Shown piece after piece: positions 3,109 to 54,271 of a stretch of 64,000 nucleotides of DNA. Source of the stretch: Patescibacteria group bacterium (GTDB taxonomy: Bacteria > Patescibacteriota > Patescibacteriia > Patescibacteriales > JAQTRU01). A model generated the notes under the pieces. It was given only the letters and a program-made list of their open reading frames with translations. It did no database searches and was not told the DNA's origin. Position numbers and translations under genes: made by a program. The stretch's first letter is position 1; every line of letters starts with the position of its first letter. The stretch is from NCBI GenBank assembly GCA_028716725.1, contig JAQUPG010000003.1, positions 11,512-75,511 on the forward strand, read 5' to 3'.

Positions 3109-4560
3109 TTAGATTCTATTTTTTGTTTCTCTATTTAACAACACTAAAATTTCTTCTCTTGTTACACCTTTTAAAAAATACAAAGCCAAAAAATAAACCG
3201 CTGCGGAAAAACTTAAAGTCGAAAATAAGCCGCCGATACCGCCAGAGAATTGGTTCGGCAAAATCCAGAGAAAAACGGCCATAACTCCCGAAGCCAGAAT
3301 TGATTTAAATAAAACCTTAAAATTAAAAAAGAAACCGGCATATTTATAAACAAGGTAAAAAGCGGCCAAAGCGATAAAAAGCTCGCTGTAAACCGTCACC
3401 CAGGCCGCGCCCAGGTAAGAAAAGCGGGGAATAAAAATAAGGTAGCCGGCTAAAGCCGTTACGCTCGTAAAAAAATAAGCGCCGATTATCTTTTTCTGCT
3501 TGTCTAAAGCGATGATGGCATGGGAAAAAATGCAGCCGAAGAATATGGCCCAAGAGGCCAGCACCAAGATTTTAAGAACCGCTCCGGAAGCGGCAAAATC
3601 TCTTCCGGCGACAACAACCATTACCTCTTCGGCTAAAAATTGCGTCCCGACCACCAAAGGTACGGCCAAAATCATCATAAAATCAAAAGATTTCTGCAGG
3701 ACTTTTTTAAAAGAATCCATGCTTCCTCCGGCCCAATCAGCGGTTAAAACCGGCAAAATAATCCCGGCAAACATAAAAGGAATAGTGATTAAAACATCAA
3801 TCACTTTGTAGGCGGCGCCGTAAACCCCGACCTCGCCCGGCGTTTTTATTAAAGAAAGGATTAAAGTATCGGCTTTAAGATAGATAAGATTAAAGGCAAT
3901 AGTAATGGCCAAAGGCCAGGTCTTTCTGATAATTTCTTTCCAGATTAACCAGTCGAACTGAATTCTTAGGCGGACAAACCGCCAGGAAAATATGAATAGG
4001 AATAAAAAATTAATAGCCGAAGCGAAAACGGTGGCAAAAATTATTCCCAAAAGGCCGAGGTTCAGTTCAACCGCAAAAATAACGCCGGCGACCAGAACCA
4101 GCCGCCCGATAATTTCCGCAATGGAAACTTTATCCATCCTTAAATTTTTCTGGAACAGGCCGACAAAAATCTGGTTTAAAGCGATAAAGAAAAAAGAGAA
4201 AACCGCCACGGCCACCCCTAATTTAACTTCCGGGCCGTAAGGGAGAAAAATAATGGTAAGCGGCGCCAAAGCCAGAAAAAAGATGGCTGACACCAGGCGC
4301 AAAGTAAAAAGATTATTTAAAATTTTGCCCTCGTCAACTCCGGGCCGGCTGATCATCGCCGCCGTGACCAAAGTCAGGCCTAAATCAGCCAAAATCCCAA
4401 AAACGGACAAAAAAGTTATAATCGTGGTATATTGGCCGAAACCAATCAGGCCGAGATAACGGGTGATAACCGCCACCGCAACCAGGCCCAGAACCGTGGC
4501 CATAACCTTGCTTATTATCTGAATAACCGTATTGTAAAAAATCTTAGCCGATAGTCGCAT
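3109..4560 (-). CDS. Polysaccharide/lipid-linked oligosaccharide flippase (Wzx/MOP superfamily)
   Basis: Polytopic membrane ORF of 12 or more hydrophobic helices, with the typical MRLSAKIFYNTVIQIISK N-terminus. The ATG at 4560 is preferred over the GTG at 4620 listed in the track. Confidence 0.75.
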   Translation of the reverse strand: MRLSAKIFYNTVIQIISKVMATVLGLVAVAVITRYLGLIGFGQYTTIITFLSVFGILADLGLTLVTAAMISRPGVDEGKILNNLFTLRLVSAIFFLALAPLTIIFLPYGPEVKLGVAVAVFSFFFIALNQIFVGLFQKNLRMDKVSIAEIIGRLVLVAGVIFAVELNLGLLGIIFATVFASAINFLFLFIFSWRFVRLRIQFDWLIWKEIIRKTWPLAITIAFNLIYLKADTLILSLIKTPGEVGVYGAAYKVIDVLITIPFMFAGIILPVLTADWAGGSMDSFKKVLQKSFDFMMILAVPLVVGTQFLAEEVMVVVAGRDFAASGAVLKILVLASWAIFFGCIFSHAIIALDKQKKIIGAYFFTSVTALAGYLIFIPRFSYLGAAWVTVYSELFIALAAFYLVYKYAGFFFNFKVLFKSILASGVMAVFLWILPNQFSGGIGGLFSTLSFSAAVYFLALYFLKGVTREEILVLLNRETKNRI

Positions 4561-4656
4561 AAAAATGTGTTTTTTGTTATAATAATAATACAATCCGGAT
4601 ATTACCCTTAATACCCGCACCCCTCACGTTATATTTAAAATTATAACATAAACCTT

Positions 4657-5124
4657 ATGAAAATTACTAAAATCAAAAAACATCTTCTAGCCGCTTCCCT
4701 ATTATCCCTCCTTATCTTGCCTCAGCTGGCCTTAGTCCAGTTCTCATCTCCCTCCCCGGCCCAGGCGGCGGAAAGCAATTTATGGAAAAACCAAACCGGA
4801 GCGCAAATTATAGGCGGCCAGGCTTTCGGGGACGAAACGCCGAGGGACGTAAGGGAAATAACCGTCTTGGTAATAAAAGTTTTCTTGGGATTTTTAGGAT
4901 TGATTTTTCTGGTCTTAATTATTTCCGCGGGCTTTAAGTATATGACGGCCGCAGGCAATGAAGAGAAGATAACGGAAGCTATGAGCCAAATAAAAACCGG
5001 CGTAATCGGACTAATAATAATTATGGCTTCCTACGCCATCACTTCTTACCTTACTACCTGCGTCTTTAACATAACTAAACCAGGAAGTACGGTCTGGATG
5101 TGCCATAAAGATTTCAATAACTAA
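4657..5124 (+). CDS. TrbC/VirB2-like (T4SS-pilin family) small secreted membrane protein
   Basis: 155 aa. Signal peptide ending AQAAE, then two hydrophobic helices separated by the KYMTAAGNEEK loop. Confidence 0.45.
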   Translation: MKITKIKKHLLAASLLSLLILPQLALVQFSSPSPAQAAESNLWKNQTGAQIIGGQAFGDETPRDVREITVLVIKVFLGFLGLIFLVLIISAGFKYMTAAGNEEKITEAMSQIKTGVIGLIIIMASYAITSYLTTCVFNITKPGSTVWMCHKDFNN

Positions 5125-11415: not shown

Positions 11416-11587
11416 TGTCATTGCGAGGCTCCGCCCTTCTTTTCCTATCATTGCGAGAAGCGTAGCGACGAAGCAATCTAACGCACAATGATTTTCATCT
11501 AAAGATTACATTTTGTGCCTGCGCATCATTCGTTAGATTGCCGCGTCAGTCGTCCCGAAGGCTCGGGACTCCTTCCTCGCAATGACA
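11416..11587. mobile_element. MITE-like nested-hairpin element with TGTCATTGCGAGG termini
   Basis: Terminal inverted repeats are tgtcattgcgagg (11416-11428) and cctcgcaatgaca (11575-11587). Internal IRs include gcaatctaacg/cgttagattgc and the hairpin GTCCCGAAGGCTCGGGAC (11552-11569). Confidence 0.6.
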
Positions 11588-15089: not shown

Positions 15090-15476
15090 GGGGATGCCAG
15101 GCATCGATAATGAGATTTCTTTCTAAACATTCCGGACGTGGCCGCGGGCTATTCACGTAAAACTGGCCCGCAAAATTCAAATGTCAACACATTTGTAAGC
15201 AAGGTCAAAACGGCTTTTGCCAGTTTGGCCTTTGCTCCCGCTATCGCTTAATAAAGCCATAGCCATCCGGCCGGTCGAGTCTTCATAGCCGGTACCGGGT
15301 GTCATTAATGAAGATAGATTTATAAATCGTTCTCGCTTATAAATTAAAACCAAGAGAACTGGTTATTATTGATTTTGCTTTGTTTCTACGGTAATAACGA
15401 GAAAATAAATAAAGCTATTCCTGTAAATATGTTTAGAAGAACTTATTAGACGTGGGTTCGATTCCCACCATCTCCA
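15090..15476 (+). ncRNA. ssrA: tmRNA (one-piece)
   Basis: The 5' GGGGATG pairs with the 3' CATCTCC. T-arm is GTGGGTTCGATTCCCAC. The internal tag frame reads ...AAA ACG GCT TTT GCC AGT TTG GCC TTT GCT CCC GCT ATC GCT TAA TAA (..KTAFASLAFAPAIA**, stops at 15249-15254). It is adjacent to smpB. Confidence 0.85.
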
Positions 15477-15477
15477 C

Positions 15478-15556
15478 AGAGATAATTGCAGATTTAAGAT
15501 TTTAGATTTTAGATTTAATATTTATTCTGCAATCTGCAATCTGAAATCTAAAATTA
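15478..15556. repeat. Inverted heptamer array (AGATTTN arm then ATCTNAA arm)
   Basis: gcagatttaagattttagattttagattta ... tctgcaatctgcaatctgaaatctaaaatt. Confidence 0.8.
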
Positions 15557-15949: not shown

Positions 15950-16034
15950 GCCCGGGTGGTGAAATTGGTATACACGAGGGACTTAAAATCCCTTGGATTC
16001 ATACTCCGTGCGGGTTCGAGTCCCGCCCCGGGCA
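15950..16034 (+). tRNA. tRNA-Leu(TAA), type II
   Basis: Acceptor GCCCGGG/CCCGGGC, anticodon arm AGGGA-CTTAAAA-TCCCT, long variable arm, T-arm GCGGGTTCGAGTCCCGC. Confidence 0.9.
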
Positions 16035-16193
16035 CATAAAAAATAAAATAGAAGTCTTTTCTCGCCTACGCGAGCTAACGCGGGCTTTGCCCGCCGTAGC
16101 GGGAAGAAAAAAAATATTTAATAACAGCCACTTTCGTGCCTATTGAGAGACAGCGGGCTTTGCCCGCCGTAGTCCCGAAGGCTCGGGACGTAG

Positions 16194-16265
16194 GCGGGTA
16201 TCGTATAATGGTTATTATATTACCTTGCCAAGGTAGAGATACGGGTTCGATTCCCGTTACCCGCT
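16194..16265 (+). tRNA. tRNA-Gly(GCC)
   Basis: Acceptor GCGGGTA/TACCCGC, anticodon loop TTGCCAA, T-arm ACGGGTTCGATTCCCGT. Confidence 0.9.
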
Positions 16266-34480: not shown

Positions 34481-34555
34481 TCGGGGTGCTGGGATTCGAA
34501 CCCAGGATCTTCTGGTCCCAAACCAGACGCCCTAAGCCAGCTAGGCCACACCCCG
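34481..34555 (-). tRNA. tRNA-Pro(TGG)
   Basis: The reverse complement reads CGGGGTG..TCTGG-TTTGGGA-CCAGA..CTGGGTTCGAATCCCAG-CACCCCG-A. Confidence 0.9.
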
Positions 34556-34705
34556 ATAAATGGCAGGGACTCTAAAAAATCTGCAATCTAATAAAATCTG
34601 AAGTTATTATGGTGCCCCGGGTCAGAATTGAACTGACGACACAAGGCCCCGCAATACATTTGCTACGCAAATGAATGCGGGGTAAAATTTTCAGTCCGGC
34701 GCCTG

Positions 34706-34863
34706 TCCCGCCTCAATGCCGAGAAATAATTATCCCTCGGAAAATTTTAGATTTACAATTTTATGGTGCCTGGGGTGAGAATTGGACTCACGACACAAGG
34801 ATTTTCAGTCCTTTGCTCTACCACTGAGCTACCCAGGCCTTTTTACTCGGCATTGGAGCGGGA
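34706..34863 (-). mobile_element. 158-bp unit bounded by 18-bp inverted repeats and carrying the intact tRNA-Phe
   Basis: tcccgcctcaatgccgag (34706-34723) against ctcggcattggagcggga (34846-34863), 16/18 complementary. Confidence 0.4.
34764..34838 (-). tRNA. tRNA-Phe(GAA), CCA encoded, atypical T-loop TCCAATT
   Basis: The reverse complement reads GCCTGGG-TA-GCTC-AGTGGTA-GAGC-A-AAGGA-CTGAAAA-TCCTT-GTGTC-GTGAG-TCCAATT-CTCAC-CCCAGGC-A-CCA. Confidence 0.85.
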
Positions 34864-34955
34864 CTCTACCACTGAGCTACCGAGGCCCTAAAAATGCAAA
34901 ATTATTGTGAAAATTAATTCGTCGCTAACCGAGTTGTTAATTTTTAATTTCTATG

Positions 34956-35028
34956 TTGCGGGGGTCGGATTCGAACCGACGACCTCCAGGTTATGGGCCT
35001 GGCGAGCTGCCAGCTGCTCTACCCCGCG
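34956..35028 (-). tRNA. Initiator tRNA-fMet(CAT)
   Basis: The reverse complement reads CGCGGGG...CCAGG-CCCATAA-CCTGG...CCCCGCA-A. It has the C1xA72 mismatch and A11:U24. Position 33 is C. Confidence 0.8.
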
Positions 35029-35107
35029 ACGTATTCAATTAATAATTACGAATTATCAATTACGAACTTGAAGCTCTATTCATAACTCGTAATTGTTAAT
35101 TGATTTG

Positions 35108-35181
35108 TGGGCGTACATGGACTCGAACCATGGACCTCGTCCTTATCAGGGACGCGCTCTAGCCAACTGAGCTATACGCCC
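35108..35181 (-). tRNA. tRNA-Ile(GAT)
   Basis: The reverse complement reads GGGCGTA..CGTCC-CTGATAA-GGACG..CATGGTTCGAGTCCATG-TACGCCC-A. Confidence 0.9.
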
Positions 35182-47883: not shown

Positions 47884-48294
47884 ATGAGCAAAAAGAGTTG
47901 TTCTTTCCAGGGCGTAGTTGCTTATGCCAAGCCTGGTGAAATCCCGAAGGAACAGTATCGGCGTTTCGCCACCGAACTCGTAGCCGGCTCAATGTCGGAC
48001 AGCTTATGGAAGCCGGACGGCAGCCAAGCCAGTTCAATCGTTATCCGCAAGGAGATCTGGATTAATATCGGCGGAAAGGGTGATGGCCTGGGAGACGGGA
48101 CAATGTATCCAGTCTTTCATGTCTACAATTACCTTGACCCGTCGGTCACGATACCGGGTTGGGGTTGTCTGGTCAACCCCCACAAGAAGCCCTTCCGTAC
48201 GTTCCGCGGGGCGTTGAGAGTGGCCAAGAAGCACTTCAATGCCGCCCTCGCCAGCGGCAAATGGGTCACGTTCGATCAAATGAAGGCGAAGTAG
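47884..48294 (+). CDS. Hypothetical protein (GC-rich orphan with strong SD)
   Basis: 136-aa ORF. gAAAGGAGtagccgttATG precedes it, and its own terminator follows. No family recognised. Confidence 0.6.
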   Translation: MSKKSCSFQGVVAYAKPGEIPKEQYRRFATELVAGSMSDSLWKPDGSQASSIVIRKEIWINIGGKGDGLGDGTMYPVFHVYNYLDPSVTIPGWGCLVNPHKKPFRTFRGALRVAKKHFNAALASGKWVTFDQMKAK

Positions 48295-48357: not shown

Positions 48358-48442
48358 ATTTTATTTCCCCCTCCTGACTAGGAGAGGGCTAGGGTGAGGT
48401 GTCGTCTAGCTCTACGCTAAAGCCCGGAGCCGACAGTAGGAA

Positions 48443-50218: not shown

Positions 50219-50316
50219 ATTCTGCCTCCTTGATAAAGGGCCTGCCTGCCGGTAGGCAGGGGTTAGGGGGATTTATGGCTCTACGCTCAAGCCCGGAGTC
50301 GGCGACAGTTGGTAAA

Positions 50317-50769: not shown

Positions 50770-50851
50770 AGTGATTGGTTTATTTTAAAAAGCGTTTTTA
50801 TCTCGTCTAGCTCTACGCAGAGCCCGGAGCTGACGGCGGAATTATATTTCA

Positions 50852-50998
50852 GCTAACGTTTCCTCGATATCTGAAGTTCTGAAAATCCCTTGTTAAGTTT
50901 AATCATTATTTTCAGAATTTGGGTGGAATATTTTTTTACTCCATTATATTAATTTGAAAAAAATATGTAACCAGATATCGCGTGTTAGGCGTTGTTGG
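50852..50998. repeat. Structured element E1 (three-way junction; covaries with E2)
   Basis: P1 is CGATATCTG (50865-73) with CAGATATCG (50972-80). P2 is TTCTGAAAAT (50877-86) with ATTTTCAGAA (50908-17). P3 is ATATTTTTTT (50928-37) with AAAAAAATAT (50957-66). Junctions are GAAGTT, TTTGGGTGGA and GTAAC. Confidence 0.65.
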
Positions 50999-51016
50999 TC
51001 TTTATTCTTTACCTTA

Positions 51017-51466
51017 TTATTCAATTTTTAATAAATCACCGCTAAGGCATATCGGTTGCATTGCTTTCAATTCGTCAGTATACGATAGATCAGGAATGTC
51101 ATTATATAGATAAATCGTTTTGTTTAATACGTGGGCAAATCCCATTTCAAGGAAAGTATTACCACCTATGTAGTTGGCAATTCCTTTTTTCTCTAGATTC
51201 AGAACAAGGATAGCATCGGAGTCGTTGATTTTATTATAATATCTTTTAATCACGTCATCAGCTATTTTTCTTTTGGCACTTTCTCGAAAACCCGCATCAC
51301 CGTTTACGCTCTTCTCCTTTAAAAAGTCTTCGAGTGTTAATTCTCCATTTAAAATACGCTGACTAGTTAACGGGATATCTACAGTATGTCCTTGTTTAGT
51401 AAGTTCGTCTGAAACTTCCTTGATTTGGGGAGTGAAGTCGATGCTTCCGCAGATTACGATTTTCAT
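51017..51466 (-). CDS. Nucleoside 2-deoxyribosyltransferase-like protein
   Basis: 149 aa. MKIVICGSI.F N-terminus and ...AILVLN....G..NYIGGNTFLEMGFA, typical of the NDT/Rcl-like fold. AT-rich. Confidence 0.45.
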   Translation of the reverse strand: MKIVICGSIDFTPQIKEVSDELTKQGHTVDIPLTSQRILNGELTLEDFLKEKSVNGDAGFRESAKRKIADDVIKRYYNKINDSDAILVLNLEKKGIANYIGGNTFLEMGFAHVLNKTIYLYNDIPDLSYTDELKAMQPICLSGDLLKIE

Positions 51467-51525
51467 AGAATAGGTGATTTATTAAAAATTATTTAGATAA
51501 AGAAAAAAGAATAAAGGGCAATTTC

Positions 51526-51622
51526 GCCTAACGTTTACCGATATACGAAGTTGCAAAACCCGAAGGGGATTGCAATTTGGGTGAGGGGCGAGCCGAGCCC
51601 CGAACCGTATATCGCGTTGTTG
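51526..51622. repeat. Structured element E2 (three-way junction; covaries with E1)
   Basis: P1 is CGATATACG (51539-47) with CGTATATCG (51606-14). P2 is TTGCAAAACCC with GGGGATTGCAA. P3 is GGGGC-gagccga-GCCCC (51585-51601). Junctions are GAAGTT, TTTGGGTGA and GAAC. Confidence 0.65.
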
Positions 51623-51709
51623 TACGACCCGAGGTCTGCCTTCTTTATTATCATAATTAAGAAAAGGCAGGCCGAGAGCGCAGCGCGGTTTAGTTGTGCT
51701 GATTTTTGT

Positions 51710-52315
51710 TTATTTTTTCTTTCTTTTTTTGCGTTTAACCAAGTATATTATTATTCCAATGATTATAATAGGAACTACGAACGGTAAAGACATGAATAAT
51801 AACATAAACATTGCAAATTTATTTTGTTCAGCATTCCATTTTTTAGATTCTTCCGTTTCATTATCAAAGTACTTAGAAAAATTTTTTGTATTTGCGATTG
51901 TCGGTTCAGGATTGCCTAGATTCTTCCATTCGGCTAATACTTTTTCATAGTTTGAATCCTGTAATATTTTTTCATCTTGTTCGATGTCGTAAATTAACCA
52001 ACTGGAGTCATAGTAGCTTTTACCAATAATAAATTTTGGCTTATCGGATGTAGGTACGCCTATTGATGTTAAATTACCGAGTTTTTTAAATCCTTTAAAA
52101 TGGTATCTATCGTAGTTTTTGTATAAACTAAAACACGTTTGATCACCATAGTCTGGTGAACACACATCAGAAGGATTGCCAAAATTTATTAATATCTCTG
52201 AAGTGTAATAACATTCAGTATTAAATTCTCCCCAGCCAGCTAACCCAAAAGCAATCCTCGGCAAAAGAAAGAAAAAGCAAATACAAAAAATTTTAATCCA
52301 TCTAAATGTTTTCAT
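51710..52315 (-). CDS. Hypothetical AT-rich protein with N-terminal signal/TM and C-terminal TM anchor
   Basis: 201-aa ORF with a C-terminal MFMLLFMSLPFVVPIIIIGIIIYLVKRKKRKKK. Confidence 0.5.
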   Translation of the reverse strand: MKTFRWIKIFCICFFFLLPRIAFGLAGWGEFNTECYYTSEILINFGNPSDVCSPDYGDQTCFSLYKNYDRYHFKGFKKLGNLTSIGVPTSDKPKFIIGKSYYDSSWLIYDIEQDEKILQDSNYEKVLAEWKNLGNPEPTIANTKNFSKYFDNETEESKKWNAEQNKFAMFMLLFMSLPFVVPIIIIGIIIYLVKRKKRKKK

Positions 52316-52413
52316 TTGTTAAAAAAATCAGCACAATTTTGTACAACTCGTTTTTATACGAATTAATTGTTGATAATTGGCTTTTATTTGTATATTATGC
52401 GAAATTCTTTATT

Positions 52414-52460
52414 TTCTAAATTCTAAAACCTAAAATCTAATATCTAACACCCAACACCTA
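52414..52460. repeat. Heptamer array in perfect 7-nt phase abutting a stop codon
   Basis: TTCTAAA TTCTAAA ACCTAAA ATCTAAT ATCTAAC ACCCAAC ACCTAG. Confidence 0.8.
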
Positions 52461-53231
52461 GAATCGTCGTTCCTTCCCCACAATAACATTCAAACTCCTA
52501 TTGACGCTTATTTCGGCCGGGGTGGGAATTTCAACGGCGTTATCTAAGATAATCGGGTGCTTTTGGTTTATAATCGTTAATTTTTTTAAAGAAAAAAAGC
52601 TTTGGTTGGAGGAAGGGTTTAAGTTTGAAAATTTTCTTCCTCCCTTGGTTTTTATATAGAGCTCTAAAGTTTTGTCTCGTGGGTTTGGTTTGGCTTCTTC
52701 GGGCAAATCGGAAAAGACCGAAAGATTTATGACGTTTATTTCTCCGGGCTCAAGTATTTCTATGGAATAATCTTTTTCAATTTCTAAAGTCGTGCCTTGG
52801 CTCGCGATTCTGGCTTGGGAGATAAAAAAATTTCTGCCGGCCTGGGCGATATCCAGTTTTTCCAGGCGGCGGGCGGAGAGAACGTCTCCGGCTTCTTCTT
52901 CGCGGCCGATGCCTAAAGTTTCGGCAATGGTATTGCCCTCGTTTCCGACCGGAATAATGCCCAAAGGGGTTTCCACCTTCATCTGATTATTTATTTCCGC
53001 GTTAATAATGGCGTTAATTATCTTATTAACGGTCTGGTCGCTGCCGACCGCGACAATAGTTTTGGCTCCCCTCTTTATTTCGTTCTCCACGGCTTCGTTG
53101 ATATTTTCCAAAAGCCCTAAGCGGATAATTTTTCCGTTCAGGCCCAAGTCCGTAATTCGGGTTTCAATGCGCGCCAAAGCATTATCGTATTTTTTTGTAT
53201 TTACGTAATCGTCGTAAATGTAAATATGCAT
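52458..53231 (-). CDS. Diacylglycerol-kinase/YegS-like lipid kinase family protein
   Basis: ..TIVAVGSDQTVNKIINA...PLGIIPVG..N..A..LGI pattern (GGDGT-like motif degenerated to GSDQT). Confidence 0.55.
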   Translation of the reverse strand: MHIYIYDDYVNTKKYDNALARIETRITDLGLNGKIIRLGLLENINEAVENEIKRGAKTIVAVGSDQTVNKIINAIINAEINNQMKVETPLGIIPVGNEGNTIAETLGIGREEEAGDVLSARRLEKLDIAQAGRNFFISQARIASQGTTLEIEKDYSIEILEPGEINVINLSVFSDLPEEAKPNPRDKTLELYIKTKGGRKFSNLNPSSNQSFFSLKKLTIINQKHPIILDNAVEIPTPAEISVNRSLNVIVGKERRF

Positions 53232-53881: not shown

Positions 53882-53953
53882 GCTCTTGTAGTTCAATGGA
53901 TAGAACAAGGGACTCCTAAGCCCTAGACGCAGGTCCGATTCCTGCCAAGAGCA
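53882..53953 (+). tRNA. tRNA-Arg(CCT) with atypical T-loop TCCGATT
   Basis: GCTCTTG-TA-GTTC-AATGGATA-GAAC-A-AGGGA-CTCCTAA-GCCCT-AGAC-GCAGG-TCCGATT-CCTGC-CAAGAGC-A, with an A31/G39 mismatch. Confidence 0.75.
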
Positions 53954-54197
53954 CAAAGATAAACAGGAAGGTTGTTTTTGTCTGAGACTGGTTTATAATT
54001 AGAAAAGTCCACGTTCTTGTAGACTTAAGTCATAGTTTGATAATGTTTTATTGATTTTTTATTTAATATTAGCCAAAAAGTTAATTTTATCTTATCAAAT
54101 AGTTTACCCCGTTAGAAAAGCAGGGTTTTCTTATGGGGTTTTACGTAGAACATAAATTAGTTAATTGTTAATTGTTAAAAGTTAATGGTTAATACCC

Positions 54198-54271
54198 GGG
54201 CCTTTAGCTCAGCTGGCTAGAGCACTTCCATGGCATGGAAGGGGTCAAGGGTTCAAATCCCTTAAGGTCCA
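54198..54271 (+). tRNA. tRNA-Ala(GGC)
   Basis: Acceptor GGGCCTT/AAGGTCC with G3:U70, anticodon arm CTTCC-ATGGCAT-GGAAG. Confidence 0.85.

Follow-up and report, generated by a model that had tools for sequence, protein, structure and literature searches.

A 64,000-nucleotide (nt) stretch of the genome of a Patescibacteria group bacterium (GenBank assembly GCA_028716725.1, contig JAQUPG010000003.1, forward-strand positions 11,512 to 75,511; here called the window and numbered from its first letter) contains two folded elements, E1 and E2, on either side of a small gene. Every gene between 48.4 and 53.7 kb lies on the minus strand, in the order bactofilin, a diacylglycerol kinase (DAGK)-like gene, a 201-amino-acid (aa) membrane-protein open reading frame (ORF), E2, a 149-aa nucleoside 2-deoxyribosyltransferase (NDT)-like ORF, E1, SRPBCC, cupin and Ldh_2 (coordinates of the main features in Table 1). 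An original prediction, made from the letters alone, had described E1 and E2 as a covarying pair of three-way junctions that have ends resembling integron attC core sites and that bracket an AT-rich, deoxyribosyltransferase-like gene in the manner of a gene cassette. The bracketed ORF is indeed AT-rich (GC ~0.34, against 0.40-0.48 in the surrounding genes), as is the 201-aa ORF (0.30-0.33). Its likeness to deoxyribosyltransferases is weak, the match to PF05014 (E 0.0026) falling below the cutoff, and the 201-aa ORF matched no significant Pfam family.

Table 1. Features of the E1/E2 locus, in window positions
Feature	Positions	Strand	Remarks
E1	50844-50997	+	probable attC-type site, attC of the NDT-like cassette; R1 62.7 bits, E 9e-12; outside the R1 seed
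E1 ATTTC	50846-50850	+	
E1 5' box AGCTAAC	50851-50857	+	predicted crossover between A50856 and C50857
E1 G + TTT bulge	50858-50861	+	
E1 P1 5' arm	~50862-50872	+	
E1 GAAGTT	50873-50878	+	followed by P2
E1 TTTGGGTGG	50918-50926	+	followed by a long P3
E1 AACC	50969-50972	+	
E1 P1 3' arm	50973-50982	+	
E1 3' box GTTAGGC	50984-50990	+	
E2	51519-51632	+	probable attC-type site, attC of the 201-aa cassette; R1 74.1 bits, E 2e-14; in the R1 seed
E2 ATTTC	51521-51525	+	
E2 5' box GCCTAAC	51526-51532	+	predicted crossover between 51531 and 51532
E2 G + TTT	51533-51536	+	
E2 P1 5' arm	51537-51546	+	
E2 GAAGTT	51547-51552	+	followed by P2
E2 TTTGGGTGA	51576-51584	+	followed by P3
E2 3' box GTTGTAC	51619-51625	+	
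Accessory stretch 3' of E2	51636-51689	+	35-nt hairpin 51636-51670; block GAGAGCGCAGCGCGG 51675-51689
Cassette 2 ORF	51017-51466	-	149 aa, weakly NDT-like; cassette unit 50857-51531
Cassette 1 ORF	51710-52315	-	201 aa, predicted membrane protein; cassette unit 51532-52346
attI-like site	52336-52403	+	ATTTT-GTA-CAAC-TCGTT-TTTATACGAA ... TGTATATTATGCGAA; predicted crossover between 52346 and 52347
Third repeat family	50810-50829, 50278-50298, 48409-48429		motif read on the minus strand

A motif search of the window gave two exact plus-strand copies of CTAACGTTT (50853-50861 and 51528-51536) and two of TTTGGGTGR (50918 and 51576). Each element folds as a three-way junction closed by a TAACG/TGTTA box, with folding z-scores of -4.2 and -4.1 for the two elements (plus strand, as RNA), and pairwise alignment of E1 with E2 revealed conserved junction strands and unconserved helices. 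P1 is CGATATCTG/CAGATATCG in E1 and CGATATACG/CGTATATCG in E2, a difference of two adjacent compensated pairs, and the sequences of P2 and P3 are unlike between the elements, yet fold at equal positions. These compensatory changes had been predicted, as had the positions of GCCTAAC and GTTAGGC, and all were confirmed; the end given for E2 (51622) is slightly short, since its 3' box runs past that position. The short blocks taken alone are no more frequent in the window than chance would have it, whereas the whole element is highly significant with R1, a covariance model built from sites of 48 other genomes plus E2, with E1 left out of the seed, and both members of the predicted pair are recognised by it. 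No further copy was found in the 64-kb window by short motifs or by R1 at default settings, nor by unfiltered R1 over 44-56 kb. An apparent 8-nt insertion in E1 relative to E2 proved, on the model alignment, to be an artefact of pairwise alignment.

A conserved fold in many genomes

Scanning one genome per species with the pattern TAACGTTT-N9-13-GAAGTT-N12-42-TTTGGGTG revealed matches in at least 119 species genomes, where roughly 10 would be expected by chance. The hosts among the listed matches are mostly candidate phyla radiation (CPR)/Patescibacteria; the other bacteria listed are Omnitrophota, KSB1, Aminicenantes, Bacillota, Desulfobacteraceae, Leptospirae and others, and the archaeal bins listed are Methanosarcinales/ANME, Methanomicrobiales, Pacearchaeota, Archaeoglobales and Thermoplasmatales. 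R1 gave 249 sites (201 + 48) in the 119 loci, which extend over up to 8 kb each and are referred to below by L numbers. Only 2 pattern matches occurred in 2.9 million viral contigs, and neither E2 nor the copy in L029 had a match among the 72,556 plasmids of PLSDB.

Read on the plus strand, the family consensus is ATTTC-RYM-TAAC-G-TTT(N)-P1-GAAGTT-P2-AATTTGGGTGA-P3-GAACC-P1'-T-GTTA-KRY-GATGT. Covariation was assessed by RNAalifold on 49 sequences and by pair counts on 126 model-aligned sites, to which the following counts refer. Paired cells amount to 96.7%, with double changes in 725 cells at 19 of the 27 pairs; partners slid by 1-3 columns pair in only 31-44%, and none of 500 shuffles equalled the observed covariation. 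The conserved junction helix covaries too, from GAAGTT/AATTTGGG to GATGTT/AATATGGG. Selection on a fold, as originally proposed from two copies, is thus borne out by hundreds of homologs.

From its 5' end, the 5' box has R in 110 sites, Y in 93, A/C in 111, Y in 124, A in 126, A in 126 and C in 122; the 3' box begins G-T-T and continues with R in 126, T/G in 118, R in 91 and Y in 113. At position 3 of the 5' box A predominates, opposite mostly T, which departs slightly from the RYYYAAC definition of attC. P1 is free of bulges in at least 95% of the sites, and the unpaired bases between box and P1 form a contiguous TTT(N) on the 5' arm only. The junction-proximal GAAGTT, AATTTGGGTGA and GAACC are near-invariant, and the distal parts of P2 and P3 alone are free. 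Among 108 array sites that do not match the scan pattern, GAAGTT has 0-1 mismatch in 96, and 0-2 mismatches are found in 80 for TAACGTTT and in 88 for TTTGGGTG.

Several further features of the family were observed. A CCAGCATAAAAGAAGTTTTTGCGAAGCAAAAATTTGGGTGAGTGCCGTAAGGCACGAACCTTTTATGCTG site variant is ~95% identical in L029, L042, L048, L070, L088, L091, L093, L101, L102 and L119, which come from bins of Desulfobacteraceae, Spirochaetales, Leptospiraceae, Dehalococcoidia, WOR-3, Hydrogenedentota and ANME/Methanosarcinales archaea; its spread reflects either very recent transfer across phyla and domains or mis-binning. The P3 stem pairs across an insert of 234-508 nt in three sites, in L027 (minus strand, site 1696-1751), L095 (6122-6760) and L120 (minus strand, ~4400-4690), so P3 tolerates, or is a target for, large insertions; the insert in L095, the sole one inspected, carries a whole antisense ORF. 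The GAGAGCGCAGCGCGG block of the accessory stretch beyond E2 recurs 3' of many family members, and a module akin to it, CCCCGA..GAGCGCAGCGTGG..GGAGCGNAGCGGAG, comes after the 3' box of many sites, in L008, L019, L023, L062, L064, L074, L122, L120 and L068, which belong to unrelated genomes.

The strand that folds can be read from the pairs themselves. Two G.T(U) wobbles are near-invariant (120 and 125 of the 126 sites) and other one-sided changes are wobbles as well; because these would be A.C mismatches on the complement, the folding strand is the plus strand of the window. This strand is more stable than its complement in 116 of the 126 sites with DNA parameters and in 121 with RNA parameters. 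When the longest ORF was taken from each interval between neighbouring sites, all 32, the window's among them, ran antisense to the fold, which is therefore not part of those mRNAs.

The original prediction had left open whether the folded molecule is RNA or single-stranded DNA (ssDNA); these data favour ssDNA. P2 and P3 end for the most part in C(GNA)G triloops, a loop that is also found in the canonical site attC_aadA1, and mini-hairpins of the d(GCGAAGC) type are unusually stable in DNA. A structured RNA repeated beside small genes, whether a cis-regulatory leader or riboswitch, a ribozyme or an antisense small RNA, would account for the three-way junction, the conserved junction-proximal nucleotides, the near-invariant G.U and tandem G.A pairs, and the greater stability of the folding strand with RNA parameters. 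However, such an RNA would have to lie antisense to the flanking ORF in every case, beside genes that are functionally unrelated, and to carry recombination boxes at its ends, with breakpoints within, in arrays that end at a recombinase gene with an attI-like site (below). Nor did Rfam 15 provide a family for it: at gathering scores the window gave only tRNAs and the transfer-messenger RNA (tmRNA), and searching the region up to E=10 yielded nothing that spans E1 or E2, only short chance matches (E 1-6.6, far below gathering). The cores of hammerhead, twister and purine riboswitch, compared by eye, did not fit either, in agreement with the earlier failure to recognise a riboswitch or ribozyme. 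We regard a structured RNA as very improbable and infer that the element folds as ssDNA.

Arrays, a recombinase and natural breakpoints

In the other genomes the sites form same-strand arrays. Same-strand pairs 250-2500 bp apart are spaced by 0.51-2.1 kb (5th-95th percentile; median ~1 kb), up to 7 sites occur per 8 kb on a single strand, one ORF lies between sites, and each contig has one such locus. This organisation, with its single ORF between sites, is that of the gene cassette that the original prediction had seen in the pair. It also bears on the possibility that the element is a non-autonomous selfish repeat of the miniature inverted-repeat transposable element (MITE), repetitive extragenic palindrome (REP) or bacterial interspersed mosaic element (BIME) type that inserts into intergenic DNA. 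Imperfect palindromy, intergenic position, many copies in some genomes and a very wide distribution would suit such a repeat, but the copies are clustered in one orientation, one ORF apart and at one locus per contig, no target-site duplications were seen, the internal stems covary and show no decay, and identity of the flanks ends inside the terminal box, not outside it. A selfish repeat is accordingly the least probable of the explanations considered. Of the outcomes named beforehand as contrary to the prediction (no homologs, no covariation, scattered MITE-like copies), none was encountered.

Among ORFs of at least 180 aa near the arrays, the one that recurs most often encodes a ~270-aa tyrosine recombinase, present in 20 of the 119 loci and composed of PF00589 and PF13495. 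Its score on the integron integrase model TIGR02249 is 216-218 bits, in two pieces, against a cutoff of 265; on NF040815 (XerA/'integron integrase', cutoff 220 bits) the protein of L032, which has 347 aa and stands outside the main group described below, scores 227 bits and that of L120, a main-group member, 213.5. Its closest match in the Protein Data Bank is VchIntIA, over residues 13-186 and 245-317. Alignment with IntI1 (the probe being 100% identical to annotated intI1) gives 32% identity (E 2e-47) and 49 gap positions opposite IntI1 ~193-250; judged by this alignment, the gap is an absence of the IntI-specific domain, and none of the 20 aligned recombinases has an insertion at that place. 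The C-terminus carries an IntI-like ...YTHV..n..SPL motif.

Fifteen of the recombinases, 54-85% identical to one another, form a main group, and as read off the hit tables each of the 15 genes is on the folding strand, past the 3' end of the array, and is oriented divergently from the cassette ORFs. An attI-like site is found 45-164 nt upstream of 11 of them, with the sequence ATTTC-nnnTAAC-T(C/A)GTT..TATACGAAGT followed by a second TATACGAA repeat, or, in a shorter form, ATTTC-nnnTAAC-TCGTT..TATACGAA; the ATTTC-nnnTAAC box is common to the attI-like and attC-type sites. The site probably works as an attI, to judge from its sequence. Because TATACGAAGT resembles the distal P1 plus junction of the attC-type sites (..ATATAC-GAAGTT), the comparison suggests that the conserved junction may be part of a recombinase-binding arm. 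The likeness of TATACGAAGTT to a loxP arm was taken to be fortuitous or, if anything, to reflect a general resemblance among recombinase arms. Another group of recombinases, more divergent (L032, L019, L075, L071 and L077, all from non-CPR bins) does not show the array geometry, 4 of the 5 genes being on the opposite strand, and was left out of the argument; the L032 protein has a 70-aa N-terminal extension, and in that locus an attI-like motif lies downstream of the gene.

The window has the attI-like site without the recombinase. Its site (Table 1) aligns with the conserved site upstream of the 11 recombinase genes, and the start codon of the 201-aa ORF is 31 nt from its crossover box, but tblastn detected no tyrosine recombinase in the 64 kb, and the site is followed by the DAGK-like gene (52458-53231, minus strand) in place of a recombinase gene. 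Since the same motif precedes recombinase genes elsewhere, this suggests that the integrase gene was lost at the window locus. The IntI-like integrase that the original prediction had proposed to look for thus exists beside arrays in other genomes and is missing from the window itself. On the gene strand the locus reads as the attI-like site, cassette 1 (52346 to 51532, with E2 as its attC), cassette 2 (51531 to 50857, with E1 as its attC) and then ordinary-looking genes; the DAGK and bactofilin genes, upstream and in the same orientation, could supply transcription.

A conventional explanation of these arrays would be ordinary attC sites in a cluster of attC sites lacking integron integrases (CALIN), served in trans by a canonical IntI, the short recombinases being Xer-type dimer resolvases that happen to lie nearby. 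Integrons share the box consensus, the hairpin, the layout of the arrays, the orientation of the ORFs and the AAC breakpoints, archaeal integrons have been reported to be mostly CALINs, with IntIs that carry the extra domain (PMC9668308), and a Xer-like 'Cand' recombinase subgroup of candidate phyla is presumed to resolve dimers (10.1101/542381). However, no canonical IntI was found in the 119 loci, all 15 main-group recombinases have the placement of an integron integrase, beside an attI-like site with the box in common, and canonical attC_aadA1 scores just 8.3 bits on R1 (E 6.4, not significant). The sites have a TTT bulge in place of G/T extrahelical bases and a conserved terminal structure, and neither E2 nor the L029 copy matched any of the plasmids searched. 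We consider this explanation unlikely.

Natural variants bear on the position of the predicted exchange. The window sequence is present in the metagenome-assembled genome (MAG) GCA_028712785.1, and MAG GCA_028713775.1 is almost identical. A different sample (SRR22315507) yielded the short contig L003, which agrees with the window along E1 and the NDT-like gene: the gene is identical, E1 has 1 base difference, and the spacer that separates E1 from the ORF has a 5-nt indel. Divergence sets in precisely where the elements end: on the left side of E1 the two differ as far as the AAC of the 5' box, and at the other end E2 is replaced by E2', another long imperfect palindrome and a weak family member (35 bits on R1). 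L003 keeps the NDT-like gene and E1 but has another site in place of E2, and therefore the gene travels with E1, not E2. L038 and L086 likewise share an identical flank up to ...ATTTCAGCT/AAC (AGCT/AAC) and then have different sites. For attC, the published crossover position is the A-C step of the bottom-strand RYYYAAC, and the 5' extremity is swapped (PMC7439510); such a position fits L038/L086 and the window/L003 pair at E1, but not the window/L003 pair at E2 (below).

Homologs of the NDT-like gene occur mostly away from such sites: 77 of 80 metagenome loci have none and three do (L172, L180 and L189), where the gene is flanked by sites in the window arrangement, inside arrays. With sites in only 3 of the 80 loci, the NDT-like family is therefore not generally cassette-borne. 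A second gene of the window is shared in only one of the 80, L129 (2507-3420), in a different order: homologs of SRPBCC (80%) and the NDT-like protein (73%) are adjacent, reversed relative to the window and without an attC-type site between them.

The surroundings of the locus hold further features. A third intergenic repeat, GCTCTACGC-n2-3-AGCCCGGAG with GTCG/CGAC flanks, is ~35 nt long, hairpin-prone and not recognised by R1; its 3 window copies bracket SRPBCC and the cupin-Ldh_2-TM130 block, and one of them adjoins E1, inside the stretch that differs in L003. At 47884-48294 (plus strand, opposite to its neighbours) lies a 136-aa ORF with no Pfam match and a local GC of 0.49-0.53 against ~0.40, which may be foreign DNA. 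The tmRNA (15090-15479) and ten tRNA genes (15950-16265, 19949, 24395, 34481-35181 and 53882-54271), two of which lie 0.2-0.6 kb past the bactofilin gene, represent ordinary chromosomal context.

Interpretation and comparison with known systems

Taken together, these findings make it probable, in our judgement, that E1 and E2 are attC-type ssDNA recombination sites of an integron-like platform whose integrase gene was lost in this genome. The likeness of the element ends to attC core sites, from which the original prediction started, has gained an IntI-related recombinase, an attI-like site and breakpoints at AAC. In the mechanism we propose, the plus strand of the window, antisense to the genes, would fold as ssDNA. 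Pairing of RYMYAAC with GTTRKRY, together with one G.T pair, would make the closing box; the TTT(N) bulge and the 10 bp of P1 would come next and lead to a three-way junction in whose helices the bases are conserved; an IntI-related tyrosine recombinase would bind the box and the P1/junction region, and would presumably cut between A and C of the 5' box. Because the recombinase gene that normally follows the attI is missing at the window, movement of its cassettes would depend on a copy elsewhere.

Several points weigh against this interpretation. The window has two sites only and no recombinase, so that recombination activity there is hypothetical. The junction between E2 and E2' (L003 55-162, window 51519-51532) does not fit a simple AA/C exchange: six bases just 5' of the predicted cut are unlike (GCCTAA in the window, ACATAA in L003), L003 has AAT for AAC, and the next ~600 nt are identical. 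The invariance of the three blocks in the seed is circular, the seed having been chosen by the three-block pattern, and the 108 off-pattern array sites offset this only partly. Many of the host assignments are MAG bins, and the count of 15 recombinases in integron geometry was read from tables and not scripted. Both G.U pairs and the conservation of a three-way junction are found more typically in RNA; an antisense transcript from the plus-strand element is possible. Compared with a textbook attC, the sites do not have separate extrahelical bases or a variable terminal structure, and the arrays do not have an adjacent intI with the IntI-specific domain; the deviant sites and the recombinase without this domain mean that the IntI mechanism cannot simply be transferred.

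Whether the system is moreover a genuinely unrecognised integron class is a question that we answer tentatively, with slightly less than an even chance in favour; the remaining probability lies with sites already catalogued as CALINs or with canonical IntIs acting in trans. Neither the site family nor an integron that has an integrase of this kind was found described in full-text literature searches, which do not extend to subscription journals. Such a class could be centred in CPR/Patescibacteria and extend to many anaerobic bacterial phyla and archaea. As integrase it could have a tyrosine recombinase of minimal, IntI/XerA-like form from which the IntI-specific domain is absent, and strand choice and recognition could proceed via the TTT bulge, the fixed G.T wobbles and the conserved three-way junction, not via extrahelical bases.

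Integrons are the textbook case of structure-specific ssDNA recombination, and both their definition and the software that finds them rest on the IntI-specific domain and the extrahelical bases of attC. If such a class exists, integron finders that need this domain would miss its platforms or report them as CALINs, and the near-identity of sites from different phyla and domains would speak for a common pool of cassettes; the system could account for part of the integrase-less attC clusters in archaea and uncultured bacteria. If the system is active, cassette capture works without either the IntI-specific domain or extrahelical bases, and integron-type gene exchange would reach CPR bacteria, which have small genomes and, it is thought, rely on functions acquired from elsewhere. 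A three-way junction and a short recombinase would make a compact structure-specific recombination system. For the window, two AT-rich genes, one for a membrane protein and one NDT-like, would be identified as horizontally acquired cassettes at a locus where closely related strains differ.

Among known arrangements, the window fits the definition of a CALIN in having two attC-type sites and no integrase within 64 kb, and differs in that its sites belong to a variant family and an attI-like site is still present; because of the latter, it looks like a platform that lost its integrase and not like a free cluster. XerA, XerC/D and the 'Cand' proteins are likewise simple tyrosine recombinases of ~270 aa without an arm-binding domain, but Xer acts on a single double-stranded dif site, whereas the recombinase here lies at the end of a cassette array beside an attI-like site. 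The Vibrio cholerae repeats and other sedentary-integron attC sites, ~100-150 nt long, with branched terminal structures and alike within an array, are similarly long and branched. Sequence similarity among known attC sites extends roughly to the order level (PMC9668308), whereas the core described here is common to many phyla of both domains.

The closest parallel is with the attC/IntI system of class 1 and chromosomal integrons, from which the present sites and recombinase also differ in defined ways. A canonical attC has two separate G/T extrahelical bases and an unpaired central spacer, where the sites here have a TTT(N) bulge directly after the box; its terminal structure is variable, where here it is a three-way junction with conserved GAAGTT, AATTTGGGTGA and GAACC; and the box here is, unlike that of a canonical attC, extended by conserved ATTTC and GATGT flanks. 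IntI carries a specific domain of ~45-50 aa that the ~270-aa recombinase does not have. The bottom-strand R box of attC is 5'-RYYYAAC-3', paired with GTTRRRY (PMC7439510), and the sites here have such a box and are likewise imperfect palindromes that would fold, as attC does, on the bottom strand into a hairpin of conserved structure, with exchange predicted between A and C. In both systems the arrays consist of mostly single, co-oriented top-strand ORFs, with the recombinase gene on the bottom strand at one end beside an attI or attI-like site that shares the box. IntI is the closest solved relative of the recombinase, and the geometry of intI1, attI1 and aadA1-attC in the class 1 integron In2 of plasmid R100 is that of the arrays described here.

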